From contig JAURGP010000001.1 of the NCBI GenBank assembly GCA_030833725.1, positions 113,870-177,869 of the forward strand: 64,000 nt of DNA, in the 5' to 3' direction. The stretch's first letter is position 1. Each line of letters opens with the position of its first letter. The notes under the pieces are model-generated. The model was not told the DNA's origin. It saw nothing but the letters and a program-made list of their open reading frames with translations, and ran no database searches. This stretch comes from Candidatus Kapaibacterium sp. (GTDB lineage: Bacteria > Bacteroidota > Ignavibacteria > Kapaibacteriales > Kapaibacteriaceae). The translations under genes were made by a program, and so were the position numbers. Below are positions 9 through 63,200 of this stretch, piece by piece.

Positions 9-3000
9 TTACCGCGCAATCACAAATGGCTCTGAGAGCCGACCGGCTGAGCTGGTAAGCACAATCCGATAGCTGCCAGACGCTAATGCTGTTGGCACTG
101 GAATCTGCAGATCACCAGACGGTAGAACACCAGAGTACACTGCAGCAACAACCGTACCGATGGCATCAACAACTTCCACCGTTACCAATTGACCTGCATA
201 GCCTTGCAGCGGCGTGACAACGATCGTACCATCATGACTGCTCACAGGATTCGGAACAACTCCAACTTCTGCAAACATTCCTGACACGGATTGGTCGTTG
301 TCCACATGTGTTGCTCCCGTGGTGCCGAGCAGGCGAATTGTTTTCGTACCGTTGCGCTCGTCGTTGTTGTACACGCGCAACGTACCTGACGAGGAACCTA
401 TCTCCGGGCGGTTATACTCCACCGTCACGTACAGCGTATCTCCCTGATTCAGCGTCGCTGGAAGGGTACGGCTGGTATTCGTCACTGCAAAGTGCCCGCG
501 AATCGAGAAGGCATTCACGCTGTCGATCAGCAATGGAGCATCCGTTGCGGCGGTAATGGCAACGGTTCGCTCAACTGGCTTGATCTCGGCTGTTTCGAAA
601 TAGAGCGTATCTGCCGAGGATGCAATCGTTGGCTTAGGTGCCACGGTGAACTGAATCCAAGCACGGTTGCCGAAGTCCGGCTCGAACACCTTGATAGTGC
701 CACCACCTGATTTGAAGATCAGGCTTCCCGTACCGAGTTGATCACGGATGTACCACAGGTCCAGTCCGTAGCCTTCCTTGTTGATCAACTCGTACTCGTA
801 GCAACCATTATCCAGGTTGTAGTTCTTGGTGTACGTTGTGTTGTCCGCAAGGTTCTTTCCGGAGTCGATGATGCTGTCGGTGTCTACCTTGCGCAGCACC
901 CACTCGTACTGTTGCGCGGCAAAGTTGTTCGTCTTCAACTGGATTTCCAGATCGCTATAGTAGACCGGTGGCATCACAGCTGTACGAATCTGCTTGTTGT
1001 TCTGGGCGTACTCATCCGTGCCACCGTTGGGCGCGTTGATCGATACGACGAACTCAAAGGCACCTTCCTCCGATGGCCAGGCAGGAATTGGTAAGGCAAC
1101 GGTATCCTTCTGCAGAAAGTCCAGCTCGCCAGTCCACTCAAACGTCGACTCGTTCGCATCTCCAGCTGCATAGATGATGGTTGCGCGTGTCAGCCGCGTG
1201 GAGCCGGTGTTCTGGATCACGATAAGGGGCTCACCACAGATGGGATTCAAGCGCTGATAGTACTCCCAGGTATTGGGTCGGATGATGTCGACGACGGCTG
1301 CATCAAGCTGGAAGTTGGGATCACCATAGCCAATCAACTGACCGGTGACATCCCACACGCCCCAACTCTCGGGATCGGCTCCTTTATCCACGCCATAGTC
1401 GATCGCCACGGTTGTACCTGGAACAGCCAGTGAGGATGGCAGCTCGTGGTTGTACAGATCCACGGGAGCTCCTGGACACCATCCCGTGCGATCGATGTTC
1501 CATGTACCTCCCTGAGGGTAGACAGGATTGTCGCCGCACTCCGTCCAGAGCAGCCATTCATGTGTGCGCTCCTGGTTAACTCCGATCCAGTGAATGCGTT
1601 GACAGAACTCGGCACAGTTCGTGGGATTGTCGAAACGGTGGCCACTGGACCACGTCTTCACGCGGAACATGCTAGCTTCCTGACTCAACGTTACGTCCAC
1701 AGGAGCCAGTGCCGTTCCAGACAGAACGTTGGTGAAGTCGGCATTGCGATCGCTCCAGAGCTGATCGATTTGCTTGACGTCGCGTGGCGGTGTGCCGGTA
1801 ATGAACTTGAAGGTCAGGTCGATCAACTCCTGCTGATTACCCGCGCTAATGGTAACGTTGTTCCGCAGAATCGGTGCATAGTCCGTAACGTCGAACAGCC
1901 ACTTGAAGCCCTGCGGTCCAAGGTCCAGACCAATGCCATAGGGCGTGATGTACCGGCCAATCTCATACACCACAATCGGATCAAACCACGGTTGTTGCTT
2001 GCGGTAGAGCACATTCTCTGGCGCTACCAGTACCGAGTCCTTTACCAGTCCAGCTTCATCGATCACATACTGCCAACCTGCTACCTGAACCGTGATGGTG
2101 TCGATCGCCAGGGTTGGATAGTCTGCATCCTCTGGTCGATGAATGCGTGGCTCAACATCGTTACGGAAGAGGATCACGCTCGAGCGGCGCGCTTCCTGAT
2201 CCACAATGATGGTGCCGGGAGTGACCGAGGCAGGGAATGAACCTGCTTCAAAGGCAAGTACCGGTCGTGCCGTACTGGCAGCCGTGAGGTATCCGAGGTA
2301 GGTATCCATCAGTTGGATGCGCGTTGGCAAGCCAAATAATTCAGCGTGCGCTCCGATGCTAGATGCGTCGCGGGCCATCGTTGGGTCGGTGTCCGTTTCG
2401 GCATTGTAGTAGGCTACCAGATTCTCGGCCTTGGGGTGCAGATCGGTGATGCCACGGTGCATCCACGCACGGATGTCATCGGCCGACAACGCGGTGTTCC
2501 ATACCTGCATTTCATCGAGGATGCCCGGGTAGGAGCCAGCAGCACCAGCTCCAAACATGAACTTCGTGATGCCGGTCATCGGAAGTGTTTTTCCCGTTCC
2601 GGACAGCACCGACTGACCATTGCGGTACACCACCATTTCGCCCGTTGAGGCATTCTTGACAAAGGCCCAGTGATTCCATGCACCTCCCGTAGCTCCGGCG
2701 GGCATCGGCCCTTCAATACGATCCATCGATCCACCGGTTCGTCCGGCATCCCAGTACAGGTTGCCATTCGACCATGGCAGATGGGCATTCAGTACACGCC
2801 GACCCTGGGCATCGAAGGCCTCAAACACGTTGTTGTTTACCGGGAAGGCGCGTTCATTTCCGTAGGCCCAGAAGGCAATGGTGATCTGATTCGTCAGCGT
2901 GGCGGCAACGCTAGCTGGCAGGGTCATCTGATCACCGGCCTGAAAGGCATAGGCACGACGCGATCCGTCATCAACAATACCATTGGAACCGGAGGGGGCT

Positions 3001-3809
3001 GCCCCAGCTTCGAGACGAATCACGGATGGAGCGTTCAGGCACGACATCTCCACAACAAGATTCGATGTTCCGTCCCAGATGAACGGTGCTTCAAAGGCCA
3101 GGTCGTTCGGGCCGTCGTCGATGTTCACCGTGCGACGGATACACCGCTGATACTGAAGATTCGAGAGAATCGAGGGTACGACGTTCTCCGTTGTTTGAGC
3201 AATGCGAACGGTGAACAGCTGAACGTTGTCGACACTATCGAGAGAGGTCAGGCGAAGTCCGCTGATCGGTCCGGCTGAGAGTCCGGCTGCCGTCAGCTCC
3301 GAGGCTCTCCAGAGGTATCGCACACGGCTACCGCCAGGAATCAGGATGCCGTTGTTGACAAAACCTGACGTTCCCACCTGCGACCAGTCACCGGATCCAG
3401 AGCTTCGACTGACGCTCCGGTTGACGAACAACCTGCGCTGCGGGACAAAGCTGGACGTGTAGGCAAGACTATCCGGTGTTGAGCCCCCTACACGATAGTT
3501 CACTTGCACTCGACGCGTCGAGTCGAACTCGCCCGTTGAGTCTGTCACCATCGTGTAGGTGAGGTAATCCCACTCACCGCAAGGGAAGCGGTCCTGCGTG
3601 GTACGAGCATCGCACTTCAGCGTATACTCCATCAGGACCTTCTCGTACGATCCAGGCGGTGGAAACTGCCACGTTCCCGACCGTTTCGTGATATCGTCGA
3701 AGGTGAGTGTCCGTACCGTAATGGTGTCCTGCGCATGCAGACAGGAGACACTGACGACAAGTTGGAGCAGAAGAACGGACAGAACACGATGTACCAAGCG
3801 CATAGTCAC
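9..3809 (-). CDS. T9SS-secreted multidomain protein with PNGase F-like (peptide N-glycanase) domains and an inserted LamG/ConA-like domain
   Basis: 1266-aa ORF. N-terminal signal peptide (MRLVHRVLSVLLLQLVVSVSCLHAQ). Segments CGEWDYLTY, EIGRYITPYGIG, CAEFCQRIHWIGVN and GTWNIDRTGWCPGAPVD closely parallel Elizabethkingia PNGase F motifs (CDEWDRY, EIGRFITPYWVG, CAEWCFRTHTIAIN, GNWAPDRAGWCPGMAVP). Central block ITIAFWAYG...WNHWAFV...VVYRNGQ is LamG-like. C-terminus (VVPNPVSSHDGTIVV...SGSYRIVLTSSAGRL) fits a T9SS CTD. Confidence 0.7.
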   Translation of the reverse strand: MTMRLVHRVLSVLLLQLVVSVSCLHAQDTITVRTLTFDDITKRSGTWQFPPPGSYEKVLMEYTLKCDARTTQDRFPCGEWDYLTYTMVTDSTGEFDSTRRVQVNYRVGGSTPDSLAYTSSFVPQRRLFVNRSVSRSSGSGDWSQVGTSGFVNNGILIPGGSRVRYLWRASELTAAGLSAGPISGLRLTSLDSVDNVQLFTVRIAQTTENVVPSILSNLQYQRCIRRTVNIDDGPNDLAFEAPFIWDGTSNLVVEMSCLNAPSVIRLEAGAAPSGSNGIVDDGSRRAYAFQAGDQMTLPASVAATLTNQITIAFWAYGNERAFPVNNNVFEAFDAQGRRVLNAHLPWSNGNLYWDAGRTGGSMDRIEGPMPAGATGGAWNHWAFVKNASTGEMVVYRNGQSVLSGTGKTLPMTGITKFMFGAGAAGSYPGILDEMQVWNTALSADDIRAWMHRGITDLHPKAENLVAYYNAETDTDPTMARDASSIGAHAELFGLPTRIQLMDTYLGYLTAASTARPVLAFEAGSFPASVTPGTIIVDQEARRSSVILFRNDVEPRIHRPEDADYPTLAIDTITVQVAGWQYVIDEAGLVKDSVLVAPENVLYRKQQPWFDPIVVYEIGRYITPYGIGLDLGPQGFKWLFDVTDYAPILRNNVTISAGNQQELIDLTFKFITGTPPRDVKQIDQLWSDRNADFTNVLSGTALAPVDVTLSQEASMFRVKTWSSGHRFDNPTNCAEFCQRIHWIGVNQERTHEWLLWTECGDNPVYPQGGTWNIDRTGWCPGAPVDLYNHELPSSLAVPGTTVAIDYGVDKGADPESWGVWDVTGQLIGYGDPNFQLDAAVVDIIRPNTWEYYQRLNPICGEPLIVIQNTGSTRLTRATIIYAAGDANESTFEWTGELDFLQKDTVALPIPAWPSEEGAFEFVVSINAPNGGTDEYAQNNKQIRTAVMPPVYYSDLEIQLKTNNFAAQQYEWVLRKVDTDSIIDSGKNLADNTTYTKNYNLDNGCYEYELINKEGYGLDLWYIRDQLGTGSLIFKSGGGTIKVFEPDFGNRAWIQFTVAPKPTIASSADTLYFETAEIKPVERTVAITAATDAPLLIDSVNAFSIRGHFAVTNTSRTLPATLNQGDTLYVTVEYNRPEIGSSSGTLRVYNNDERNGTKTIRLLGTTGATHVDNDQSVSGMFAEVGVVPNPVSSHDGTIVVTPLQGYAGQLVTVEVVDAIGTVVAAVYSGVLPSGDLQIPVPTALASGSYRIVLTSSAGRLSEPFVIAR

Positions 3810-3868: not shown

Positions 3869-4633
3869 TCAGTGCTTGGCTACGCCGCCATCGACGTTGA
3901 TTGTCTGACCCGTAATGATCCCGGAAGCCGGCAAGGCAAGGAAGGCAACCACGTTGGCAATATCCTCGGGCTCATCGGCCCTGTGAACCGCTTGGGTAGG
4001 CAGGATGTGTTCCAGCATCGTGGAGCTGACACCACCATCGCGGGCACTCTGCGTGGCGGTCAAGCCCACGCTGATGGAATTGACGGTAATCCCGTACTTG
4101 CCTACCTCCGACGCAAGAGATCGCGTGAGTCCGATCACACCCATCTTCGCCGTAACGTAGTGGGTGAGGTAGGGCGAACCAAGCCAGACAGTGTCGCTGC
4201 TGAAGGAGATGATCCGACCGAACCCTGCTGCCTTCATATGCGGAAGAACCACCTTGATGGTATGGAACAGCGTATGAAGGGTGAGGTTGATCGTTTGCTC
4301 CCATTCGTCGAAGTTCAGCAGATCAAACGGCTCCTCGTGGTAGTAGCCTACGTTGTGCACCAGAATGTCAATCCTACCGAAGGCCTCCATTGCCACATCA
4401 GCAACCCGTTGGGCATCTGCAGGCTTCAGGAGATCGGCCTGCACACTTACCACCGTCCCGCCTTGGGCCCGAAGGGCCTCGGCAAGGTCGGTGGCATCAA
4501 TCACGTCGGCAATCACCAGACGCGCGCCCTCTTGCACCAGACGTTCGCAGAAGGCACGGCCATTACCAACGGCAGCGCCGGTCACAATCGCTACCCGATC
4601 GTGTAATCCTCGTTCAAACGCTGTGATCTGCAT
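3869..4633 (-). CDS. short-chain dehydrogenase/reductase (classical SDR)
   Basis: 254 aa. TGAAVGNGRA Rossmann motif, catalytic YxxxK (YVTAK) and NVG motif. Sits immediately downstream (same strand) of the alpha-oxoamine synthase. Confidence 0.85.
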   Translation of the reverse strand: MQITAFERGLHDRVAIVTGAAVGNGRAFCERLVQEGARLVIADVIDATDLAEALRAQGGTVVSVQADLLKPADAQRVADVAMEAFGRIDILVHNVGYYHEEPFDLLNFDEWEQTINLTLHTLFHTIKVVLPHMKAAGFGRIISFSSDTVWLGSPYLTHYVTAKMGVIGLTRSLASEVGKYGITVNSISVGLTATQSARDGGVSSTMLEHILPTQAVHRADEPEDIANVVAFLALPASGIITGQTINVDGGVAKH

Positions 4634-4645
4634 GGTGAGGCGTTG

Positions 4646-5839
4646 TTAGGAAATCAGCCCAAGCTCCCGACCCACCTCCTGGAACACGTTCAAGATGGCA
4701 TCGAGATGCTCATCCTCATGCGTAGCCATGTAGCTGGTGCGCAGCATCGACAGATTAGGTGGGACTCCCGGCGGAATGAAGGCATTCACGAACACTCCCT
4801 TGTCGTAGAGCTTTCTCCACATGAGCATCGTACGCTCTACATCACCGAGTACTACCGGTACGATACCGGTGCGACTATCCATAACGGTAAAGCCCATGGC
4901 CTTGAAGCCATCGCGCATTTTGTCGGCATTGTGGAGCAGCTTTTCGATGCGCCACGGCTCCGTCTCGAGAATCTCGAGCGCTGCCAAGGCTGCGGCTACC
5001 GAAGCTGGTGTAGGCGATGCACTGAAAATCAACGCCGGCGAGTGGTGCTTCAGGTAGTTAATCACGCGCTCTGGGCCACCAACGAATCCACCGAGCGAGG
5101 CAAACGTCTTGGAGAACGTGCCCATGGTAAGGTCGGCCTTGTCGATCAGGCCATAGTGCGCAGCCGTGCCACGGCCGCCTGGCCCAACAACGCCCGTAGC
5201 ATGGGCGTCATCCACCAGAATCCTAGCCCCATACTTCTCGGCGACGGCAACCATGTCTGGCAGATTCACCAGCTCTCCCGATACGGAGAACACCCCGTCG
5301 GTTACAATCAGCTTACCAGCAGAATCCGGCACACGCTGGAGAACGCGCTCTAGGTCGTCCATGTCGTTGTGCTTGTAGCGCAGGAACTCAGCAAAGCCGC
5401 CTTTGGCCAACATGCAGGCATTGATAATGCAGGCATGGTTCTCCTTGTCGGAGATGACGTACTCGCCTTTTGAGACCAAGGCCGACACCGTGCCGAGGGC
5501 TGTTTGATACCCAGTGGAGAACAGCAGCACGCTCTCGTAGCCCAGAAATGCAGCGAGTTTCTCCTCCAGTTCATTGTGCAGGTTAATCGTGCCTGTGAGG
5601 TAGCGCGATCCTGAGCAACCGGTGCCGTAGCGCTCGATGGCATCAATAGCTGCCTTCTTCACGCGCGGGTCGGAAGTCAATCCCAGGTAGTTGTTCGAGC
5701 CCGCCATGATCACCGGCCTACCCTCGAGGGTTACGACAGGTCCCTCGTTTTCTTCGACGGCTCTGAAGTAGGGATACAAGCCGGCGGCTTTCACTTCATC
5801 GGCACGCGTGAAGTCGCGACATTTTTGAAACAGATCCAC
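4646..5839 (-). CDS. PLP-dependent alpha-oxoamine synthase family; serine palmitoyltransferase-like (alternatively 2-amino-3-ketobutyrate CoA ligase)
   Basis: 397 aa. PLP-lysine motif [13 protein letters not shown] matches the SPT signature GTFSKS(V/L)G..GGF rather than Kbl GTLGKALG or BioF GTFGKA. The C-terminal region also resembles SPT: [28 protein letters not shown] here versus Sphingomonas SPT GLYVNMARPPATPAGTFLLRCSICAEHT. Confidence 0.8.
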
Positions 5840-8097: not shown

Positions 8098-11000
8098 TTA
8101 CCAACACATCACGGTAGCACGGTATGTTGAACCGTCAGGACTGCTAACGGTAAGACCATACACCCCAGCAGCAAGGTGCGATGTGTTGATCACCTGCTCG
8201 CCATTAATCGACCGCTGGAGGACCACGCGTCCAGCGGCGTCTACCATGGTCAGCTGAGCCTGTGTGGCACGAATCCAGAGATTGGTTCCGTCCATTCGAT
8301 GCTCGATAGCTTCACTGCGGTCTTCCTGAACACTCACCACCCTGCGTTCAGCTTGTAACAGGATTGGCTCACCCAGCCAACCGCAGGAATCCACGGCAAT
8401 GCGCAGCTCACCGCTTGCCGAACCGTCGGCCTGCATCTGTGATGGGCGGAACCAGACCGTGAACGGTGCATCCGTGTTGGTTGGCAGTGTGGCGCCAACG
8501 CTCAGATCCGTGCGGAACGGTCCCGTGATCTGCACATTCGAGATCCGCGCGGGCCAAGCCTTGTTGGTGATGATGCGAAGACTTGTATCGATACGTACAT
8601 CCTCAAGGGCTGGCGAGATTGGATCGTCGAATACCAGTTCCTGCGGTGCCGTCAGTTCGGCTCGTACCCACGGGACGTCCACGGTTTGCTCGATGGTACC
8701 CTCGCACGTTGGCGTCTGGTAGCTCACTAGCAGAACATCGGCTTCGTTCTGGTCGGTGACGGTGCCACGGTATCGCAGACGCACAACGGTAGAGTTGTTA
8801 GCGGGAATGGATGCACCCGACAGTACCTGTAGCGAAACATTACGCGTCTGCAGTCGTGCAGACTGAACGGTGGCACTGGAAGATGTTGTGTTACGGACCA
8901 CAACTTCTAGGATGCGCTCTACGGGTTCATCACACAGCGTTCGTGTTGGAAACGCTGGCCTACCATCGGAGATGTCTACGCCGATGGTCGAGCGCTCACC
9001 CGCGATCGGAATGCGAATGTCGCTGCCACATAGTTCTGCTACAATGATGGTATCAGCTACGGTGGTCGTACCTGTTAGCGTGACCACCACCGGAAGCGTG
9101 TATTGCGCTCCGGGAGCTAGGCGACGCGGCAGTGCGGTGGACTGGGCGGCCCCCTGCGCCGCCGTCACACCCGTGAGTGTGGCCGTATCAGCTCCGCGAT
9201 TGATGACAGTAACCGTGGTTTCGAAAATGTTCTCACATGGATCCAGATCTGGTACGGCAATGGAAGCCGTGATGGACTGGACGTTGACCATACGAACCGG
9301 TACGAACACTGCTGCGGTGTCTGCGCACAGAGATGGCGTAACAGCGATCGCCGTATACGTAACAGCAAACGGTGTGGATGTTGTGATGGTTCTGCCAGTG
9401 CCAATCGATTGATTGTTTGCGTACCACGTCACGGTCACAGGGTCCTGCGATGCAATACGCGCTTCTAACTCAAACGTCTGATTCGGGCACGGTTTTGTAG
9501 GCGGCGTACCAACAGTAACCGTTGGCGAGGGAAGAACAACCACATTCGTGGACAACGCTCGTGTACAGGCGTTGGCGTCGGTGACTACTAGCGCGACCGT
9601 CTGATTGCGTTGCGGAACAAACGTGAGTGTGGAATCGGGACGTGTGACATTCACATCACTGCCCGACCATGCAAACGTGTACGGTGGCGTGCCCCCTACC
9701 TGAGCCACATTGATCGTAAGTGGTTGGCCGGCACACACCTCATACGTGTTCTCTACCGATGGTGTGAGTTCTGGCAACACGATGAGTTGCGTTGTAACTG
9801 CACGCTCGCATCCGTTGGCATCTGTAATGGTTGCCGTCAACAGCTGATCATCAACAGGAACAAAGCTGAAGCTCGTACCCGTCACGGTGGTATCGACCTG
9901 TGCAGACTTCCAGTTCACGGAGTAGGGGGCTGTCCCACCGGGAGTCACGATTTGAAGAATCGCGGCTTCGCCGCCGCACACGTCCATGGTAGACTCCATG
10001 GTGGCGGTAAGCGCAGGGTGAACCGTCAAGGAAGCTGTGAGCGTCTTGGTGCAGTTCTTTGCATCGGTGATGACAGCGGTTAGCGTTCCCGATGTTGCGA
10101 ATGTTCGGGTAAGTGCACCCGTGGCTGTGGTAGTGTCCACGTTCGGTGCCGTCCAGCGTACGGTGTAGGGTGCGGTTCCACCCATCGTGCCAAGCGAAAG
10201 GGCGAGCGCCTCACCGCCACATACTTCGAAACTCGAACTCATCGTTGCCGTGATCTGAGGATGAACCGTCACTACCACGGTATCACGTCGCACCACTCCC
10301 AGATCATCCGTCACTGTGAGAACATAGGACGTTGTTGTGGTTGGAGTTGCCACGGGGGTAAGTGTCGTAGCTCCCGTAAGTCCCGTAGTGGGGAGCCATG
10401 AGTAGGCATACGGTGTTGTACCTCCGCTTACCGTTCCCGACAACGTGGTGGAGTTTCCGAAGCAAACACTCACATCGGATCCAGCAGCTACGGTCATGTC
10501 GCTGATCATCGTCAAGCAGGTTGCATCTTCCAACTTGCCTTCCAGCAGGATCTGCACCGTAGGATGAAACTGCAGCGAAATCCCACCAGTCGTGAGGTGA
10601 CAGTAGCTCATGATCGTGCCCGTCTTGGGTACTGTCTGTGTGAAACAGTTACCATCTTCGGCGGCGTAACAACTGTCTAGAGCCGGATTCCATGTGCACG
10701 AATGCGTGTGGCGCGAACCTACGTTGTGACCCAGCTCGTGTGCCGTCACCTCGGTATCCCAGGCATAGGTTGTGCGCGGATACGTGTACACGTTATCCAA
10801 GCCACTCACGCCAAAGCCGAAGTTGTTGCACAGGCCATTCAAGTAGGCGATACCCCCGATGTTGTTGATGCCGCTGAACAGATGCACTACACTGCGTTCC
10901 ACGTTGGTGTGGTTATTGAGCCAGTACGTTCGCAGCTGCGTGAGCAGTGTGGCCGTAGTGGTGCCGGGGTAGGGGTCGGTGGTCGTGAAAATCGTCAGGT

Positions 11001-11763
11001 CGCTGATGTTCAGCACGGCATCGACGTCGCGATCATACAACGCGCTCACGGCAGCAATCACTGCTTCGGCGTAGTCGGTGGCATTTGCGAGGTTGCTGCC
11101 ATGGTCGAGGTAGTAGTTGTAGTCGCATTCCAGGGCAATGTCGATACGGTACTTCGACCCAGCCTGTGTAGACTCCCCACGTTTCCGTACTGGGCGATCC
11201 GGCAGTTCGGGTAGGTCGTCCGTGCTGCACCACCACGGTTCAGGTTTCTGCAGGTCGCTGTTCAGCACAACGGCAATGGGCGCTGGTCGGGCAGTATTGA
11301 GAGGACTCAAGTGATACGTTGGTTCAGCCCCCTTCACCATCGAGATGGTTCCGACAGCATACCCTGCGTACACGGACATCATGACATACGACTCGGGGTG
11401 GCCTTCAACGATTCCTGCCAAATGAACACTCTGAGGTGGAGCTACGGTAACCACACCTTGATCCGTTACAGCACGAATCTTCGTGGTTTCACTGATCACC
11501 CGATGGCGACGCAGATTCAGGGTAAGGGGCTGCCCATCAGGTACGGGCAGCTGGATGCGCACCTCGGCGTCGTCAGGTAGCGCCCGCACCTCCGAGAACA
11601 CGGCACCATTCACCTGCACAATCGGTCGTGAAGCAGGCAACGTAGCAGGCCGCTCCGAACTCGGCAGTTGATGGATCGTGAACAGCGATTGTTGAGCGGC
11701 AACGCAATCGTGCACCGTTGCCATCAGCACACATGCAAGGGCGAGAACAGGTAGCAGCTTCAT
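8098..11763 (-). CDS. T9SS-secreted metzincin-type zinc metalloprotease with 5-6 tandem Ig-like repeat domains
   Basis: 1221 aa. Signal peptide. HELGHNVGSRH matches HExxHxxGxxH. Repeated ~95-aa modules (TVHPQITATM..CGGEALAL.., TVHPALTATM..CGGEAAIL.., LPELTPSVEN..CAGQPLTI..). C-terminal T9SS CTD (AAGVYGLTVSSPDGSTYRATVMCW). Confidence 0.75.
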   Translation of the reverse strand: MKLLPVLALACVLMATVHDCVAAQQSLFTIHQLPSSERPATLPASRPIVQVNGAVFSEVRALPDDAEVRIQLPVPDGQPLTLNLRRHRVISETTKIRAVTDQGVVTVAPPQSVHLAGIVEGHPESYVMMSVYAGYAVGTISMVKGAEPTYHLSPLNTARPAPIAVVLNSDLQKPEPWWCSTDDLPELPDRPVRKRGESTQAGSKYRIDIALECDYNYYLDHGSNLANATDYAEAVIAAVSALYDRDVDAVLNISDLTIFTTTDPYPGTTTATLLTQLRTYWLNNHTNVERSVVHLFSGINNIGGIAYLNGLCNNFGFGVSGLDNVYTYPRTTYAWDTEVTAHELGHNVGSRHTHSCTWNPALDSCYAAEDGNCFTQTVPKTGTIMSYCHLTTGGISLQFHPTVQILLEGKLEDATCLTMISDMTVAAGSDVSVCFGNSTTLSGTVSGGTTPYAYSWLPTTGLTGATTLTPVATPTTTTSYVLTVTDDLGVVRRDTVVVTVHPQITATMSSSFEVCGGEALALSLGTMGGTAPYTVRWTAPNVDTTTATGALTRTFATSGTLTAVITDAKNCTKTLTASLTVHPALTATMESTMDVCGGEAAILQIVTPGGTAPYSVNWKSAQVDTTVTGTSFSFVPVDDQLLTATITDANGCERAVTTQLIVLPELTPSVENTYEVCAGQPLTINVAQVGGTPPYTFAWSGSDVNVTRPDSTLTFVPQRNQTVALVVTDANACTRALSTNVVVLPSPTVTVGTPPTKPCPNQTFELEARIASQDPVTVTWYANNQSIGTGRTITTSTPFAVTYTAIAVTPSLCADTAAVFVPVRMVNVQSITASIAVPDLDPCENIFETTVTVINRGADTATLTGVTAAQGAAQSTALPRRLAPGAQYTLPVVVTLTGTTTVADTIIVAELCGSDIRIPIAGERSTIGVDISDGRPAFPTRTLCDEPVERILEVVVRNTTSSSATVQSARLQTRNVSLQVLSGASIPANNSTVVRLRYRGTVTDQNEADVLLVSYQTPTCEGTIEQTVDVPWVRAELTAPQELVFDDPISPALEDVRIDTSLRIITNKAWPARISNVQITGPFRTDLSVGATLPTNTDAPFTVWFRPSQMQADGSASGELRIAVDSCGWLGEPILLQAERRVVSVQEDRSEAIEHRMDGTNLWIRATQAQLTMVDAAGRVVLQRSINGEQVINTSHLAAGVYGLTVSSPDGSTYRATVMCW

Positions 11764-37768: not shown

Positions 37769-37810
37769 GAGCGGCGATCGTAACAGCTTCACGGTCGCCG
37801 CTCGTTTTTT
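37769..37810 (+). terminator. rho-independent terminator candidate for the sigma/anti-sigma operon
   Basis: GAGCGGCGATCG-taacagcttcac-GGTCGCCGCTC followed by GTTTTTTAT. The hairpin and T-run overlap the last codons (KNERRP) of the convergent 667-aa gene. Confidence 0.45.
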
Positions 37811-39792
37811 ATGTAGAACTCGATGTTACCAAAGATGGATTGCTCCGGTTCCTGTAAGCCTGCCTGAATCCACTCACGTTGCCGACCGCGAATCACAGGA
37901 ACCACATCGTAGTCTCGTGGGGTGCCCAACAGTTCACGGTCCGGCGTACGCAGGTCGTCGGGGCCCAGCCACCGGATTGCCACCGTTCGGTCGATCGTGA
38001 TACTACGAGGAATCATGGACGCCGCCGGCTGATCACCTCCACCCAGGACAATGCGCGTCGGGTCGCTCTGTTGCTGATTTCCATCTCGATCCACAACATG
38101 CAGTGTGATGGCAATCGGCGAACCAGATGCTACCACACGCGGATCAAGATCGGTACTCATATCCCAGAATAGCTGTTTCGGGAGTGGTCCGTCTCCACGT
38201 TGCTCGTATAGCGTATCACCCCCTCCCGTCACGGTGAGTACCCACTGGCGAATGCCACGCTCCGACACCACATCCGGCGTGATACGGAGCTTTGGGACTT
38301 GCACTTCGATGATGGTATCGGTGATGGCCATCGGCTTGAGCAGTCGGCGTGTTGGATCAACAAACACCACCCAGGGCTTCTCCGATGGCTTTCCCCGAAG
38401 GGTCGTCACTGGGATTCGCGACTGGTCAACACCGAACACCTGCGTAAGGTAGCTCCGAATGGAGGTGGTGCGCTGTGCATTTAGAATGGCACCGTCGGCC
38501 GTGCCGTCATCGTAGGACACAATCTGCATGGTAGTGCTCGGCATAGCCTGCATGCGAGACCCCAACACGTTCAGGATGTGGTACTGCCAATGAATGACCG
38601 TATCAACGAAAATCTGCTCCTCGCGCCATGCGCTGGCCTGCTGCTGATCCAGCTGCACGTATCGATCCGGGAGAGACTGCTCCGACGATTGGAATGCAAC
38701 CAAGGGTAACACCGGTAAACGCCGCGTTCGGCGAACGGCGTGAACGCGTACGTTGGTGCCGCCGATGATTGCTCCATCACCCTCTTCGAAGGCTGCCCTG
38801 AGCGCAACCTTGAGAACGGCCGGTGGTTTGGGGATCAGTCGCTGATAGCGATAGCGTACCAAGACGTTGACAAGTTCGTCCCCTGGAAACTCTTGGACGA
38901 TCTCACCAGCATACACCACGGTGTCCGTACCTACCAAATCGCTGAGCAGTGTAATCGTGTCACGAACGACGATGGTATCGCGACGAAGGCCATCGTCGAA
39001 CCCTGTGCCATCAGCAAACCGGTAGCGGATGCCCACGCCTACCATTGCCGTGAACGTTCGCATCCCCGACCCTGACTCCCATGGCAATAGCGGAATCATG
39101 GCCGAGACACGTGGCGTGAGAAACAGCGTGCGGCCTCTTCGCAGTGGTATAAGCCCCTCGGCAGCAATCTGAAGTGTAGGAACCAACACGGATAGACGAG
39201 GTATCGGACCAGAGCCTACTGCGATTTCGGTGGAACCATCTACAAACTGCTGACCCACTGGATCGGAGAATCGCATGCGCTGTTCGTAGTAGGATGCCGA
39301 AGACAAGTGTAATGGTATCCCACCCTCAACAGCCAACCACGACTCAATCTGATAGCGCAGAAACGGCTCTACAAACACCGTAGCAAACCGAACCTGAAGA
39401 TCGTGTTCGATGGTAGCATCGTACGTGCCTCCGTCGTCCGTTGCAAGCGGTACTTGTTCTGGAGCCGTGTAATGGAATCGATTCCACGAAACTCCAACGC
39501 GACCTCCAAGTCGTAGCTGACGATTGCCAGGTGTCAGTTCGGCATCAGCTCCAATCACAAACCATGGCTGCCACGTGGCTGTTGCGCCAGAGAATAGTAG
39601 TCCCTTCGGTGTAGGTACACCACCTAGGGCCGTAATGGCGGTAACCGGCGTTGTGAGAACACCGCCTCCTGTGAGATGAAGAGCTATTCTCTCCTGTGCT
39701 GTGCCAACTGTCGCATATAGCATCACCAGGAGACTATAGGCCAGACACTTCCCAACTCGCGATCGTAGAATGGTTCTCACATGCACCGTCAC
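37789..39792 (-). CDS. large hypothetical secreted protein
   Basis: 667 aa. Signal peptide. No recognisable catalytic motif. Overlaps the upstream gene by 4 bp. Confidence 0.5.
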   Translation of the reverse strand: MTVHVRTILRSRVGKCLAYSLLVMLYATVGTAQERIALHLTGGGVLTTPVTAITALGGVPTPKGLLFSGATATWQPWFVIGADAELTPGNRQLRLGGRVGVSWNRFHYTAPEQVPLATDDGGTYDATIEHDLQVRFATVFVEPFLRYQIESWLAVEGGIPLHLSSASYYEQRMRFSDPVGQQFVDGSTEIAVGSGPIPRLSVLVPTLQIAAEGLIPLRRGRTLFLTPRVSAMIPLLPWESGSGMRTFTAMVGVGIRYRFADGTGFDDGLRRDTIVVRDTITLLSDLVGTDTVVYAGEIVQEFPGDELVNVLVRYRYQRLIPKPPAVLKVALRAAFEEGDGAIIGGTNVRVHAVRRTRRLPVLPLVAFQSSEQSLPDRYVQLDQQQASAWREEQIFVDTVIHWQYHILNVLGSRMQAMPSTTMQIVSYDDGTADGAILNAQRTTSIRSYLTQVFGVDQSRIPVTTLRGKPSEKPWVVFVDPTRRLLKPMAITDTIIEVQVPKLRITPDVVSERGIRQWVLTVTGGGDTLYEQRGDGPLPKQLFWDMSTDLDPRVVASGSPIAITLHVVDRDGNQQQSDPTRIVLGGGDQPAASMIPRSITIDRTVAIRWLGPDDLRTPDRELLGTPRDYDVVPVIRGRQREWIQAGLQEPEQSIFGNIEFYIKNERRP

Positions 39793-41507
39793 TCGTACCT
39801 GAACATGCGAACAATACGCAGGGGTGGGATACCCACGCCACGCTGCACGAGACAGCGGGCATAGTACATGCCAGGCTGCAGGTTGAAGTCAGACATCGCG
39901 ACGGTGCGACTGTTGCCGGAGGGCATGTTCTCTACGGTAGCAACAATAGAGCCATCTATACTCACGATGTCCAGTCGTGCATTGGCCTGTTCCGCGCCAT
40001 AGAGAGTAATCGTACCACCGATGGTCAGCGGATTTGGAGAAATGGTAAGTCGGAGAGCCCCCTTCAAGGAACTCACCAGACGTTGCATCCCCGCTCCGTA
40101 CGTGTAGATGTTATCCACCTTCACAGTGGTGGTATCTGCTAGCACGATTTGTGGGTCGCTGGCTCGAATACCCACAATGCCATGTCGGATTACGAGATCG
40201 GAATACGGTGCATCGCCAAGAGCAACTACTGCATACACGGTATCAAGTGGAGTACGACTGCCATTGGGTATGATGCCTCGCTGTGCTGCGTCCATGCGCC
40301 ACCACAATGTGTCGCGATCGACCACCCTGCGCTGACCGGCACGAGCAATCGGTACAAGCACCGTGGGATTGTAGGCAACGTCGAGTTGGTGTCCGGTGAT
40401 CTCGACCGGCTCGTCGAACGGAGTTTGCGTTACGGCAGATAACACCAATTGGATGGTGTCTCCGATCTCGGCGGTGATCGTATCTGCCTGCCACTGAAAT
40501 GAAAAAGTAACCGGCCGAGGCTTCAGAAGAAGATCAACGTTGATCCGGGTTGAATCCCACACGCGCGACGAGTCGGCACTGAAGCGTCGGAGATGACACT
40601 CCACGCGTTCGTTGCGATATTCTGTGGGTTGGGCTATCAACTTGAGAGTAAGTACGGATCGTCGTGTTGGTCGGTTGGGATCTACTTCAATACGTAGCGG
40701 TTGATCATCTGCAACACGTACATCGTACAGAAATCTCTCCTGTATGACGAAACTCGGCAAGCGGAGGAAGGTCACGGTCGTATCCGTGCTACCCACCATG
40801 GCATCTCGAACCACCACGGTGGTATCGGCCCTCATCTGAACAGCAGTTGCCTGAAGTACCAGTGTCAGCGTGTCGAGCGGCACAAGCTGCTGATACCACC
40901 GGATCAATCTCAACGTGTCGAAGTAGGAGCCTTGTACTGTTGGCTGAAAACGTACACGCACTTCCAGGCTATCATCGGGATCGGCGCGTAGCAGGCCCCC
41001 GGAAGTATCAATCTGAAACGGCTGCGACACATTCCGATGTAACGCGTAATCAGCAACAACGTATGCAGGGCCATACACATCAATGCGTTTCTCTTGAACG
41101 TCGCCGGTAAGCGCTGTAAAGAACTGCACCTGTTGCGTCGTGGTGAGGGACCGCCCCGACCCGGTGAAGACAATCGTGATTGTATCTACCACGCTGCGAC
41201 CCTCAAGACGGAGTATCACAGCGCTATCACGAAACTCGCCCTTGGAAAGGGGCTGAAACGCACACAACCATGCTCGACTCCCCGCGAGGTCGATGGGAAT
41301 CTCGGAGGACAGTGTAAATGGCGGAGATACGCGGCGGAGAACACGCCACCGTGTATCTCCATCGGCATCCTCCGGTGCGAATACAGCACGCGTTGCCTCT
41401 ATTCCCAGGAGTACCTCGCCGAAGTCGACGGCATACGACACGTCCATCGGCAGGAGCAGAAGTGCTGCCGTGATAAGTCTCACCGCATAGTGCGAGATGC
41501 GTGCCAT
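39789..41507 (-). CDS. hypothetical secreted protein with T9SS-type C-terminal domain
   Basis: Signal peptide MARISHYAVRLITAALLLLPMDVSYA. C-terminal TISPNPLTIGG...LDIVSIDGSIVATV...LQPGMYYARCLV fits a T9SS CTD. Confidence 0.5.
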   Translation of the reverse strand: MARISHYAVRLITAALLLLPMDVSYAVDFGEVLLGIEATRAVFAPEDADGDTRWRVLRRVSPPFTLSSEIPIDLAGSRAWLCAFQPLSKGEFRDSAVILRLEGRSVVDTITIVFTGSGRSLTTTQQVQFFTALTGDVQEKRIDVYGPAYVVADYALHRNVSQPFQIDTSGGLLRADPDDSLEVRVRFQPTVQGSYFDTLRLIRWYQQLVPLDTLTLVLQATAVQMRADTTVVVRDAMVGSTDTTVTFLRLPSFVIQERFLYDVRVADDQPLRIEVDPNRPTRRSVLTLKLIAQPTEYRNERVECHLRRFSADSSRVWDSTRINVDLLLKPRPVTFSFQWQADTITAEIGDTIQLVLSAVTQTPFDEPVEITGHQLDVAYNPTVLVPIARAGQRRVVDRDTLWWRMDAAQRGIIPNGSRTPLDTVYAVVALGDAPYSDLVIRHGIVGIRASDPQIVLADTTTVKVDNIYTYGAGMQRLVSSLKGALRLTISPNPLTIGGTITLYGAEQANARLDIVSIDGSIVATVENMPSGNSRTVAMSDFNLQPGMYYARCLVQRGVGIPPLRIVRMFRYE

Positions 41508-41532
41508 ACCAACCGTGATGTATCGTGCGAGT

Positions 41533-43593
41533 TTATCGTGCGTGAACAGTGCAGTTTCGACCGCTGTATTCCACTGTTTCCACATGGCCACTGCCTTGTA
41601 CCCGAACGGTGTAACCCGCGTTCTGGAGAATAGTAACAGCACGTCGCAGCGTAAGTCCGCGAACGTCTGGTTTGTAGGTGCCGTTGTTCTGTGCAATCCG
41701 AACGGAGATCATGCCACCTCGTTGAACACGCTTTCCGGGAAGGGGCTCTTGCGACACAATCAGCCCCGTATCCGTCAGCGATCGAATCCGTAATCCCAGC
41801 CGTTGGAGAATGGTATCTGCCAAGCCCACTCGTAAGCCCCGCACATCAGGAATCAGCAGGGAATCCGCTACGGACGAGGCTGCTATGAACTTCCTGGTCC
41901 GGTCGTCCAGATCTAACATTGTCATGCTTTTCTGCACGATTTTCCGAAAGATCGGTGCTGCAGCTGATCCCCCGTAGATCGTTGATTGTGGACGGTCGAG
42001 CATGACGATCATGCATACTTTGGGTTTGTCGGCAGGATAGTATCCCACAAACGAGGCCGTGTAGGACTTTCGTGAGTACGACCCATCCTCCAACTGCTGC
42101 GCCGTGCCCGTCTTTCCAGCAATCAGCACGCCGGGAATGCGCGCTAGCTGGCCAGTACCCTGTTCCACCACACCAATCAGCATGTTGGTGAGACGCGTGG
42201 CGGTAGTGTCGGCTATCACACGGCGTATCACTTGTGGCTTGATCTTTCGGAGAACCTCGCCGTCTGGTCGCACAATCTGCTGCACGACGTGTGGCTCCAT
42301 CATGACTCCACCGTTGGCGATCGTAGCATAGGCATTCAGCATTTGTAGTGCCGTAGCTGTGAGCTCGTACCCAAAGGCCATGAAGTACTGCGTGGTGTTG
42401 TCGAATGCGTCTGGCCGCTTTAGCACGCCCCGAACTTCACCGGGCAGGTCGATACCACTGGGGATTCCAAATCCGAAGTCACGAAAGTACTTGTAGAACT
42501 TCCGGCTATTGATGCGTCGGGCCTGCGTTGCAAACACAACGTTGCTTGACTGCTCCAGTGCAATCTGAAATGTGGTTTTTCCCAGGGGATGATCATCGCG
42601 TATAACGTGACCTGGAAGCTGCAGGATGCCACCCAGCCCGTCAACCTGATCGCCTGGCTGGAGCAATCCCTCTTCGAGGAGAGCCGCAGCCGTGATGGCC
42701 TTGATCGTTGATCCGGGTTCGTACTGATCCGTGACTCCCCGCGTGCGAATAGCCTCGGACGTTGCACGGTCCAGCCGCATCGGATCAAATGTGGGCATCG
42801 ACGCCATGGCAAGGATCTCACCGGTCGATGGTTTGATAGCAATCACGGTGCCCGAACTTGCCCCCGTGGTGGTTACACCACGTCGAAGCTCTTCTTCTGC
42901 GATGCGCTGCAGTTCGATGTCGATGGTCAATTGCAGTCCGTTGCCGTTGCGCGGAGCCTTACGCTCGGGGTTGACGCCCGGACGCAGTCGTCCGCGACCA
43001 TCACGCTGCATGACCACAAAGCCACTCTCACCCCGTAGTTCGTGATTGTAGGCCAACTCAATGCCAGTGACGCCATTGTTATCTACGTCGGTCACGCCAA
43101 TGATCTGTGCCGCGGTGTTCCCATACAGGAAACTCCTCTTGGGTTCATCAACACGGATCAACCCAGGATCACGCAGCGTGTCGAGATCGGGATACAGGAT
43201 AGCATTGACACCTCTGGCGAGCCATACAAACCGACCCTTGTGTTGCTTGATCTTGTTCAGGTAGTAGCCAACGCTGTCGCCGGCAGCCATCGCCAGCGAA
43301 TTGGCAACGAGCTCCGGATTTGTAAGCATCACCGGATCGGCTGCATATGACGTCATCGTCATCATGCTAGCGATGTCGCGTCCATTGCGGTCGTACAGAC
43401 TGCCACGCTGTGCACGAAGCTCTACCTTCGATTCATACTGCCGCTTGGCGAGCTCGCGGTACCGAGCCCCCTCCATCACCTGCACCCAGAACAGCCGACC
43501 CAGTACCAGCGAGAACAGTACGCTGAAGAGCAGGATCAACACGCCTGCCTTCCACCGTATGGGATCGTATGGTGCCGGTGGAGTGGGTTCCAT
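41533..43593 (-). CDS. ftsI: peptidoglycan D,D-transpeptidase FtsI-like (class B PBP) with two C-terminal PASTA domains
   Basis: 686 aa. N-terminal TM. PBP dimerisation domain. Transpeptidase motifs STIK (GSTIKAITA), SSN and KTGT (AGKTGTA). Two PASTA repeats (PDVRGLRVGLADTIL..., PDVRGLTLRRAVTIL...). Confidence 0.8.
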   Translation of the reverse strand: MEPTPPAPYDPIRWKAGVLILLFSVLFSLVLGRLFWVQVMEGARYRELAKRQYESKVELRAQRGSLYDRNGRDIASMMTMTSYAADPVMLTNPELVANSLAMAAGDSVGYYLNKIKQHKGRFVWLARGVNAILYPDLDTLRDPGLIRVDEPKRSFLYGNTAAQIIGVTDVDNNGVTGIELAYNHELRGESGFVVMQRDGRGRLRPGVNPERKAPRNGNGLQLTIDIELQRIAEEELRRGVTTTGASSGTVIAIKPSTGEILAMASMPTFDPMRLDRATSEAIRTRGVTDQYEPGSTIKAITAAALLEEGLLQPGDQVDGLGGILQLPGHVIRDDHPLGKTTFQIALEQSSNVVFATQARRINSRKFYKYFRDFGFGIPSGIDLPGEVRGVLKRPDAFDNTTQYFMAFGYELTATALQMLNAYATIANGGVMMEPHVVQQIVRPDGEVLRKIKPQVIRRVIADTTATRLTNMLIGVVEQGTGQLARIPGVLIAGKTGTAQQLEDGSYSRKSYTASFVGYYPADKPKVCMIVMLDRPQSTIYGGSAAAPIFRKIVQKSMTMLDLDDRTRKFIAASSVADSLLIPDVRGLRVGLADTILQRLGLRIRSLTDTGLIVSQEPLPGKRVQRGGMISVRIAQNNGTYKPDVRGLTLRRAVTILQNAGYTVRVQGSGHVETVEYSGRNCTVHAR

Positions 43594-60250: not shown

Positions 60251-63200
60251 TTAGCGTACGATGGTTACAGGTCCCGTGACAACGTTGTTGTTGTTCGTGA
60301 CCTTCACGATGTAGCGTCCAGCTGGATACTGAGCAGCGTTGATATCGAAGCTGTATACACCAGCATTCTTCGACTCGTCAACGAGTGTGGCGATGCGCTC
60401 GCCAACGACGTTGAACAGCTCAACAACTACACGGCCGGTGGCTGGTACTGTAACGTTAACCATACCTTCTGCCGAAGCAGGGTTTGGTGTAACGTTAACA
60501 GCCAGGGCACCAAGGTTGGTGTCTTCACCCAGCAGGCGGATAGCCGATGCGTTAGGTACTACAATCGTGTTGTTCGTACCAGCAACAACTGAACCGAGCA
60601 CTTCACCCGTGATAGCGTTTACTACCGTGTAGTTACGCTCGGCGTTGTTCATCGTTACTGTTACTGGGAACGTAGCACCTTGCAAACGGATCATTGGGTT
60701 CACAGCATCTTCCACGTAAGAGTGGTTGCTGAAGCGAACGTCGAACATGTTGCTTGGTGGTACTGGTGGAAGTTGGAACATGTCCATCACCTCAACAGTA
60801 CCGTTCTCAGCTACATACAAGTCGTTGGTGCGGTTAGCTGCGTCAGCAACCGTTACAACCGTAGCGTTCGAGCGTACTGATTCGCGGGCTGCACCGAAGT
60901 TGATACCAGCCTTGGTGCGACCATTCGTCATACGCAGGTAGGCTTGACCCGAGATCTTCATCCAGTAACCAAGACCTGGTTGGATCTCAGAGACTGCCTG
61001 ATAACCGCGATCTGTTACGTAGCGATAGATGTCAGCCGTGATCTCAGGGAATGCACCCGAACCATAAGGAACGAGGGTAACATTCTCGATGGATGTTGGC
61101 GTGCTGAGCGAACCGATCGTATTCCAACCTTCATACATACGTACTGGGAAGGTTTGCTCGTCGATGCGCGTAACACGGGCACCAGCGATACGAGTGTCAA
61201 CTTCATCCGAGTACTTCACGAAGTAGCCAACACCAACTTGCAGATCTGGGTCGTTGGTTTGGTAGCTGTTTTGAGCGAAGCGGATTGGAATGTTCAACGA
61301 GTTCTTGAAGACGCTCTTCCAGTTCGTCGAAGCAGGGTTTACTGGCATCGACAACAGGTTCCAGCCCTTGTTGATCACTGGGAACTGAGCAACCTTTGGA
61401 AGCGTGTATTCAATCACGAAGGCGTCGATATCGGCGTCGGTGATTGTGTACGAGTAACGTGAGCCACCAATGTTCGTGGCATTACGCATGTTCACGTTGA
61501 ACAGCGATCCACCGGCTGTGTCACGGAGGAAGAGCTCCGAGGCTGGCGAAAACTCACTCGTGTTCCATGTGATCACGATTGGATAGTCTTCAGCAGCTGG
61601 TGTTTTCACACGGCAGTAGTACAGAAGAGTCGTGTCTGCATAGATGTCGCGGATGTCACGCGATTCATTACGAGCACGTGTACTTGTTGGTGTCCAAAGA
61701 TCACCAAGACCGTTTGTGTAAATGGTTGCACCGCTCTCGTTGCGTGGGAACCAACGTGCGCTGAAGCCCGACTGAGCCGTTGTGTAGACCGTTTCACCAA
61801 ACAGCGTATCAACTTCGTTAGTAGCACGGTGTCCAACACCGAATACGATGTTCGTGCTCTGTACTGGCTGCGCAGAGTTGCGGATGTTCAACAGGATACC
61901 AGCGCCACGGCGGCCGTCTGGATCTTCTTCCCAGTTTCCAGCCTCGTCGAAGACGTTTGGCTCGAATGGATTACGGAAGTAGATAAACGTCACCTTGATG
62001 CGTACTGGCTGGTGAGCCAGAGTGGTCGACTTGAATGTGAGGTATCCAACGTGGATACCAGCAATCTCGTTACCGGAGCCTTGATCGAGTTCGTTTGGAT
62101 CACAGATGATGCGCATGTTCAAGTCACGCATACCAACGGTGTTCGAACCGTCTGGTGTTACACCCAGCGTTGTACCAAGGATACCCTTGTCCAGCATGGC
62201 TACGTAGCCTTCACGAACAGGTTGTGGGAATGGGTTGATCTCACCATTGCCACCCTTCAGGAACGACTTGAACTTCAACCAACGTGAGTCTGACTGCACC
62301 GTGATATCGGTTGCGCGTGAACCCGTAACAGCGTTGATCACGTCGATGTCGCGTGTACCCATGCCGTTGACGTTGTCGTCGTAGTTGGAGCCAACGTCGA
62401 TCGTGATTGGGTTTACTACGTACCATTCGGTGCCGTTCGAGCCTGCAACAGAGTCAACCTCACGGAAGCGCGGGTCAGCAACGTTTGTGAAGGACAGTTG
62501 TGGGATAAGGTCAGTTACTTCCACCCACAGCATGCCTGGCTTCGATGGACGAAGAGGATCGCGAATTTCTTCCAACAGGGTCTGCTGGTTGATGAAGAAG
62601 TTATCGACGCCACCAAGACCCGTGAAGATCGAAGGAATTGGATCATCTGGGAAGGCGCGCTCAAATCCCATCTGGAAGTCGTTGTAGAACAACGTGTCAT
62701 TCGTGATGATCAATGGCGTACGACCGCTCACTGGGAAGCGAACTGGGTCGGCTACAACCTTGAAGCGCAGGTACACGAGTTCAACGAACGGACGCTGATC
62801 ACATGGCGAGTTGATGTCGCCTGTTTGTGGCAGCGCTTTCGAGGAGATACCCGTGATCATCACGCGCTTACCGCGACGACGGTTTTCACGGTCTGCACCG
62901 ATAATGGTTTGGTACGTGGTGTCGCGATCAACGTCCGTGCTGAATTCGAAGTCTTCAGCAAGACAGCCGATCGGCATGTTCTGCGTTCCACGACGTGGAC
63001 CATTCTTCTCTACGCCAATAAACTCAAGGGCGGTGCTGTCGAACTGCACCTTGAATTTGAAGCTATAGATCGGGAATGCTTCGAACGTGGATGTCGTGCG
63101 CCAGCAGTTCTTGATGAACACTGGTACGAGCATCGTACGCTCGGAGTTAACTGTCTGACGTTGTGGCACCCAAATGCGCCCGTCAGGATAATATGAGGCA

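Follow-up and report, generated by a model that had tools for sequence, protein, structure and literature searches.

How does a single bacterial protein come to hold two separate stretches that resemble the N-terminal domain of PNGase F, 513 residues apart, with a lectin-like domain between them? The question is raised by an uninterrupted open reading frame (ORF) of 1266 residues in a 64,000-nucleotide stretch of Candidatus Kapaibacterium sp. (contig JAURGP010000001.1, positions 113,870 to 177,869; hereafter the window). A preliminary description, made from the sequence alone, had taken the two stretches for a duplicated N-domain (about aa 60–100 and 600–640) and placed a LamG domain between the N- and C-domains. 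Its headline, a large type IX secretion system (T9SS)-type cargo with a PNGase F-like amidase core and an inserted LamG domain, is borne out by the analysis reported here; its layout is not. The first jelly-roll of the PNGase F core is built from aa 27–97 and aa 611–690, and everything between them is an insert, itself nested. We consider this architecture well established.

A PNGase F core in two pieces

The relationship to PNGase F is visible at several levels. The Pfam model of the C-domain, N-glycanase_C (PF09113), matches aa 702–825 with 40.4 bits (gathering threshold 25, E 3e-10), so that the earlier assignment to PNGase F now has a significant Pfam match behind it. When the single sequence was searched against the PDB, PNGase F entries came out on top (E 6e-16 to 3e-15), zebrafish Ngly2 (9lwg) was the only other real match, and the alignment paired aa 615–805 with PNGase F residues 76–277, i.e. 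it began in the middle of the N-domain. The family profile also has PNGase F as its best PDB match (residues 75–297, E 1e-29). An AlphaFold2 model of aa 27–900 was obtained with a mean predicted local distance difference test (pLDDT) score of 88.8; a Foldseek search with it lists PNGase F structures first (1png, E 2e-12, 27% identity), in a local alignment that covers just 236 contiguous columns. The motifs cited in the preliminary description are present and align as claimed: KCDARTTQDRFPCGEWDY with PNGase F ECPNKTCDEWDR, and CAEFC and GWCPG with CAEWC and GWCPG. The ORF product is a true PNGase F homolog with the core of clan CL0612, closest to type I PNGase F.

The N-domain is harder to see. 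On the intact protein, N-glycanase_N (PF09112) yields a sub-threshold fragment (aa 614–654, 12.2 bits versus 22.4), and in precomputed Pfam lists no family member carries this domain; Pfam misses it in every member because the insert splits the N-domain. A single-sequence PDB search with aa 27–133 returned just an irrelevant rhamnosidase, and a family profile was needed to place the upstream piece. The profile of aa 27–97, built from 36 relatives, matches just three PNGase F sequences among 177,635 PDB sequences, and aligns with PNGase F residues 4–71 at E 0.01. As aa 27–97 correspond to residues 4–71 and aa 611 onward to residues 75–297, the two pieces tile the enzyme, with the break at the turn formed by residues 71–75. 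A spliced construct (aa 27–97 joined to aa 608 onward) aligns continuously to PNGase F residues 28–277, with CGEWD over C56-D-E-W59-D60, and splicing raises the alignment score from 60 to 74 bits. In the AlphaFold2 model the first piece (aa 27–97) contains four strands, at pLDDT values mostly of 87–93.

Covariation ties the two pieces together. In a mean-field direct coupling analysis (DCA) of 318 unique sequences (effective number, Meff, 207), 35 of the 100 top couplings join the two N-domain pieces (13.8 expected, P 8e-8), and a single one joins the first piece to the C-domain (24 expected, P 3e-11). Antiparallel ladders emerge for all six strand pairings: B–I (T29–I670, T31–K668, R33–T666, L35–I663), D–I (G53–T671, M60–L665, K65–L662), D–G (L59/E61–L638, T63–K636, L64–W637), C–H (S44–T653, Q48–N651, F49–V652), E–H (Y82–Q660, L83–N658), and E–F (L83–I621, V88–I617, M87–V614, D90–V613). 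A complete eight-stranded N-terminal jelly-roll homologous to PNGase F residues 1–137 is present, in two pieces, and the turn of its E–F hairpin is the site of the insert.

The layout proposed earlier, two N-domain-like copies with LamG between the N- and C-domains, drew on a correct observation, namely that the protein has two separate stretches similar to the N-domain of PNGase F. These stretches match different, adjacent halves of that domain, however (residues 4–71, and 75 onward); aa 27–97 and aa 611–690 have no similarity to each other that hhalign could detect, and they covary as paired strands of one jelly-roll. They are complementary halves rather than copies, and LamG sits inside the N-domain. 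An all-against-all hhalign comparison of ten segments of the protein gave nothing significant in the way of internal duplication except a weak immunoglobulin (Ig)-like similarity of post1/post2, segments downstream of the core, to the tail. The profile of aa 27–97, hhalign and DCA all refute the duplication, and we give that layout next to no chance of being right.

The nested insert

The insert consists of 513 residues (aa 98–610) in three modules and leaves the core at the tip of the E–F beta-hairpin; in 121 close relatives its length is 494–528 aa. The LamG domain of the preliminary description is real, with Laminin_G_3 (PF13385) matching aa 291–446 at 57.9 bits (threshold 27.6, E 1.7e-15), but it does not make up the insert on its own: the model shows three beta-rich units, which we refer to as modules A, B (LamG), and C'.

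Module C' is discontinuous. When aa 96–275 were modelled alone, the segment was folded just from about residue 150, and residues 98–148, which are confident strands in the larger model, lost their strands, because these pair with the far half of C'. This pairing is seen in the covariation within the insert, where aa 122–134 form a ladder with aa 528–540 (i+j about 662), aa 114–119 form another with aa 598–602 (about 716), and R100 couples to D610. Residues 98–148 and 456–610 form one beta domain that carries module A and LamG, a two-level nesting. Neither C' nor module A has a Pfam match as an isolated segment or a match in the PDB search with the family profile; a separate model of module A found nothing at E 1e-3 or better in Foldseek, with a weak, generic resemblance to jelly-roll and carbohydrate-binding module (CBM)-like folds. 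Two natural variants of about 900 aa (P0227 and P0248) are missing module A and have an insert of about 340 aa, with LamG, C', and core intact; both also seem to be truncated C-terminally, perhaps at contig ends.

LamG is the best conserved module of the insert. Its structural neighbours, by Foldseek and by profile, are PAPP-A, pentraxins, 4dqa, and 5hon. A polar/aromatic cluster (E330, R338, H343, W346, Y352, W353, D354, D363, R364, H380, K385) is kept in about 85–93% of 342 family sequences, which suggests a ligand site. As D81 and Y624 of the active site lie at the base of the E–F hairpin and the insert at its tip, we infer from strand geometry that the insert exits about 8–10 residues (roughly 30 Å) away, at the pole opposite the catalytic cleft.

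Active site and proposed function

Residue conservation was counted in 121 relatives and then in 342 sequences that include representatives of 50%-identity clusters; the counts given here refer to the latter. The catalytic D81 (PNGase F Asp60) and E734 (Glu206) and the substrate-binding R774 (Arg248) are each kept in 340 sequences; H724, W80, and Y624 (Tyr85) in 339; and W777, C66, C77, C758, and C778 in at least 339 each. The catalytic Asp and Glu equivalents that the preliminary description counted on are present and near-invariant among the relatives. The three disulfides of PNGase F (51–56, 204–208, and 231–252) correspond to C66/C77, C732/C736, and C758/C778, all found in this protein; in the family the middle pair is variable (C736 in 230 of the 342) and the other two are near-invariant. 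Of the chitobiose-binding set, W80, Y624, R774, and W777 are kept, and H724 is present, a residue that most other PNGases have too. The W-D-Y triplet and the His and Glu of the ORF product fit the superfamily motifs of Bakshani et al., an aromatic-Asp-positive/aromatic triplet and a His and Glu pair, a description in which Trp191 of PNGase F is the exception (PMC12381499). The Asp and Glu equivalents are essential by mutagenesis even in zebrafish Ngly2 (PMC12753239).

These counts also bear on a non-catalytic alternative, a surface lectin or adhesin in which the PNGase F cleft, LamG, and CBM-like modules just bind glycans. The multi-module surface-protein architecture, in which a CBM-like sandwich and Ig-like spacers accompany LamG and a T9SS tail, would suit such a protein, but enzyme-derived lectins usually lose their catalytic residues, whereas here 340 of the 342 sequences, drawn from clusters at 50% identity or less, retain Asp and Glu, together with the Arg248 equivalent and His724, and conservation along the protein is highest in the core. 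We regard a purely binding function as improbable; PNGase-type amidase activity is likely, as far as sequence can indicate.

In the full explanation, the protein would be exported by the Sec pathway, cross the outer membrane by the T9SS, and act at the cell surface or after release as an N-glycan amidase, hydrolyzing the GlcNAc–Asn (N-acetylglucosamine–asparagine) amide bond in N-glycoproteins or glycopeptides. Its substrates would come from eukaryotes in aquatic habitats, i.e. algae, protists, and animals; the insert would serve as a lectin-like targeting or substrate-capture head and the Ig-like modules as a stalk. We put the probability of this explanation at about 0.6. The foraging role named in the preliminary description is plausible in this light, with no support from gene context, in which there is neither a polysaccharide utilization locus (PUL) nor any conserved neighbour.

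Several observations weigh against this explanation. PF09112 stays below threshold on the spliced N-domain as well (17.3 bits versus 22.4). In the substrate site, the position of Glu118 is occupied by Gln660, followed by a near-invariant E661, and that of Arg61 by Tyr82, and Trp120 and Trp191 of PNGase F are not kept; the chitobiose subsite therefore differs from that of PNGase F. No PUL and no glycosidase neighbours were found in 81 loci, and among 62 Bacteroidota loci none of the neighbour families turns up in more than 5, so that the context gives no functional clue. Covariation between insert and core shows no conserved contact, with inter-domain pairs strongly depleted and no ladders, so a role for the insert can only be inferred. 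Finally, the protein's own tail (last 87 residues) scores 14.0 bits against Por_Secre_tail (PF18962), where the threshold is 27.

The sorting domain stands at the level of the family profile, and in this protein's own tail it remains sub-threshold in Pfam. There is no NCBIfam match to it (TIGR04183), and against the PDB the tail alone returns just spurious repeat-protein matches. The C-terminal end of the family profile matches solved T9SS C-terminal domains (CTDs), 8glk_D (E 1.8e-6) and 8glj_D (E 1.2e-3), and the clade's tail profile matches PF18962-positive Bacteroidota tails with an hhalign probability of 98.6% (E 7e-16). Through homology, a T9SS type-A tail holds as a family-level prediction. 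Between core and tail lie beta-rich modules, in the order that had been described. The two beta-sandwiches of aa 831–1055 (post1 and post2) have no Pfam match and no PDB match with the family profile; aa 1056–1165 show a likeness to ASH, DUF1573, and choice-of-anchor-D domains that is below threshold (NF012200, 30.1 bits versus a cut-off of 45).

With regard to the substrate site, Tyr82 and Gln660 covary (coupling rank 25), and in one relative they are Arg and Glu, as in PNGase F, a sign that the two residues may compensate for each other. Glu118 of PNGase F is said, in work by Kuhn et al. from 1995, to bind substrate and not to be catalytic.

The altered subsite (Glu118 to Gln660, Arg61 to Tyr82, the equivalents of Trp120 and Trp191 gone) and the absence of PULs and glycosidase neighbours speak for a second alternative, in which the same fold and chemistry serve an amide-linked glycan that is not of the eukaryotic N-glycan type. 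Candidates are the GlcNAc–Asn glycans on T9SS cargo of Cytophaga hutchinsonii, in which PNGase F-sensitive N-glycosylation of T9SS CTDs has been reported (PMC11611037), or another bacterial surface glycoconjugate; the enzyme would then process its own or a competitor's envelope rather than contribute to nutrition. The confinement of the family to T9SS-using lineages fits such a role as well. However, the aromatic-Asp-aromatic and His and Glu motifs are common in PNGases that act on eukaryotic N-glycans (PMC12381499), and the differences from PNGase F are therefore not unusual. In addition, reports of N-glycosylated T9SS cargo are limited to one species, and no glycosylation genes are linked to the gene. 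We consider this alternative unlikely, if worth keeping in view, and favor an amidase for eukaryotic N-glycans.

A further idea is more speculative, and we think it quite unlikely: the insert may define a class of PNGases with a new target, either bacterial GlcNAc–Asn glycans on the T9SS cargo of the producer or its neighbours, or algal and protist N-glycans outside the range of current PNGases, with the LamG patch as an additional recognition site that the enzyme could not do without. PNGases belong to the key tools of glycobiology, and the search for further specificities is active (PMC12381499). The natural variants that are missing module A, together with the defined modules, offer a handle on what accessory lectin modules contribute, and in this protein nature provides a clear example of domain insertion, nested at two levels, within a double jelly-roll enzyme. 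If the enzyme is active, this would point to widespread de-N-glycosylation of eukaryotic or bacterial glycoproteins among Kapaibacteria and environmental Bacteroidota.

Gene, distribution and comparison with known PNGases

The layout of the protein and the other features of the window are collected in Table 1. The signal peptide was read by eye from the n/h/c pattern of the sequence. Other gene callers start two codons downstream, at an ATG, which gives 1264 aa, and an identical 1264-aa protein (P0001) has been called on five other public contigs; as the GC content along the ORF is also even (0.53–0.57), this is a real gene and not an assembly artefact.

Table 1. Modules of the PNGase F-like protein and further features of the window (window coordinates; residue numbers refer to the 1266-aa product)
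Feature	Position	Strand	Residues and content
Whole ORF	9..3809	(-)	1266 aa from GTG start; stop codon at 9-11
Probable Sec signal peptide	3732..3809	(-)	aa 1-26; basic n-region, hydrophobic core VLSVLLLQLVVSVS, then ...CLHA|QD
PNGase F N-terminal jelly-roll, part 1	3519..3731	(-)	aa 27-97; strands B, C, D, E; C66-C77 disulfide pair and W80-D81-Y82 (PNGase F W59-D60-R61)
Insertion module C', first half	3366..3518	(-)	aa 98-148; strands pair with aa 512-610
Insertion module A	2994..3365	(-)	aa ~149-272; jelly-roll/CBM-like beta-sandwich
Insertion module B, LamG/concanavalin A-like	2445..2984	(-)	aa 276-455; Pfam match 291-446
Insertion module C', second half	1980..2444	(-)	aa 456-610; beta-rich
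PNGase F N-terminal jelly-roll, part 2	1740..1979	(-)	aa 611-690; strands F, G, H, I; YEIGRYITPY (Y624 = PNGase F Y85); N658-Q-Q660-E661 (Glu118 region)
PNGase F C-terminal jelly-roll	1320..1739	(-)	aa 691-830; H724, C732/C736, E734 (= Glu206), C758/C778, W770, R774 (= Arg248), W777
Two beta-sandwich (Ig-like) spacer modules	645..1319	(-)	aa 831-945 and 946-1055
ASH/DUF1573/choice-of-anchor-D-like Ig module	315..644	(-)	aa 1056-1165; all matches sub-threshold
Predicted T9SS type-A C-terminal sorting domain	12..272	(-)	aa 1180-1266; VVPNPV ... D-x-x-G ... G-S-Y
Reprolysin-like (M12B) metalloprotease	8098..11763	(-)	1221 aa; SprB/Ig-type repeats; sub-threshold Por_Secre_tail, 20.6 bits
Putative ORF	37789..39792	(-)	667 aa; no Pfam match at E 1e-3
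Putative ORF, adjacent to the preceding one	39789..41696	(-)	635 aa; no Pfam match at E 1e-3
Penicillin-binding protein (PBP) transpeptidase gene	41533..43593		adjoins the putative ORF pair 37789..41696
Large T9SS cargo ORF	60251..63355	(-)	1034 aa; Por_Secre_tail sole Pfam match, above threshold, 28.2 bits

Relatives are numerous. Of the word-sharing candidates, 426 proteins reach E 1e-5 or better, and a relative with one of two signature motifs is encoded in at least 594 species-representative genomes. Database homologs have the same full-length architecture at 35–65% identity, and this architecture occurs in more than 150 clusters at 50% identity. Among the best 80 relatives, the match runs from query residues 1–2 to 870–874, i.e. 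over the full core and insert, in 78, and the records of the other two are truncated; nearly all 80 are labelled as metagenome-assembled genomes (MAGs), with record names that mostly point to lake, marine, and sludge samples. The taxa include Kapaibacteria, Ignavibacteria, Flavobacteriales, Chitinophagales, Sphingobacteriales, and Saprospiraceae, among others. Almost all that is known of the clade comes from uncultured aquatic bacteria. The automatic names of the homologs are 'peptide-N-glycosidase F-related protein', 'LamG-like jellyroll fold domain-containing protein', and 'T9SS type A sorting domain-containing protein'. Five MAG records that carry the gene, which is of Kapaibacteria/Bacteroidota type (L007, L042, L019, L044, and L031), bear the taxon labels Patescibacteria, Chitinophaga pinensis, Alphaproteobacteria, or Chloroflexota, and two of these, L007 and L019, also have Kapaibacteria-like flanks (80–87% identity); the labels of the five are probably wrong or the contigs mis-binned.

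Directly upstream of the gene lie a KBL-type aminotransferase gene and a short-chain dehydrogenase/reductase (SDR) gene, with gaps of 12 and 59 bp (window 3869..5839 (-); L001 8083-9072), and an arginase-family gene begins 8 bp past the stop codon. Only in Kapaibacteria/Ignavibacteria (13–16 loci) do the genes follow the order KBL, SDR, this gene, arginase-family, ABC-F. We rejected an operon running from KBL to the arginase-family gene: the order is never found in Bacteroidota, and the flanks within the clade are 80–88% identical. Compared with Kapaibacterium MAGs, these flanks stand at 80–88% identity and the gene itself at 50–55%; the flanks thus mark the source as an organism of Kapaibacteria type, and the gene therefore evolves fast. 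Elsewhere in the window, two further ORFs carry CTD tails (PF18962, 28.2 and 20.6 bits); the second of them, the metalloprotease, is probably another T9SS cargo near the PNGase F-like gene.

Literature searches turned up neither a description of a PNGase F that is split or carries LamG nor any assay of the database homologs. The known accessory modules of PNGases are appended at the ends, and we found no description of a precedent for the split layout seen here; in the PNGase literature covered, the sole insertion mentioned is one of 60 aa after strand F' in 3ks7, at another site. PNGase F-II (4R4X) and PNGasePm (7ZGN) have family cores and a sizeable accessory beta module that is set apart from their active site, and are weaker PDB matches of the family profile (E 1.5e-8 and 4e-5, respectively). 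Their bowl-like domain (NBL) is appended N-terminally and not inserted in the jelly-roll, and they are without LamG. PNGaseL and PNGaseDo, compared here by their description, come from Bacteroidota and have C-terminal T9SS signals as well as accessory beta modules (PMC12381499). The aromatic-Asp-aromatic/positive and His and Glu motifs are common to them and the ORF product, but their accessory modules flank the catalytic module, and a split catalytic domain is not described for them (PMC12381499). The acid PNGase Ngly2 of zebrafish (9LWG, PMC12753239) is a distant member of the PNGase F family with large extra domains, in which Asp and Glu are essential; it is eukaryotic and dimeric with an acidic pH optimum, and its core is uninterrupted, with the thioredoxin-like and PA domains on the N-terminal side.

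PNGase F of Elizabethkingia meningoseptica (1PNG, 1PNF, 1PGS, 3PMS) is the closest solved relative, at about 27% identity over the contiguous core. The two share the double jelly-roll, Asp60, Glu206, Arg248, Trp59, Tyr85, and Trp251, as well as the three disulfide positions. They differ in the substrate site, where the ORF product has Tyr82 and Gln660 for Arg61 and Glu118, does not keep Trp120 and Trp191, and has His724 instead. PNGase F is a protein of 314 aa with a four-residue E–F turn; in the ORF product, that turn holds 513 residues in three modules, and the core is followed by three additional Ig-like modules and a T9SS tail.

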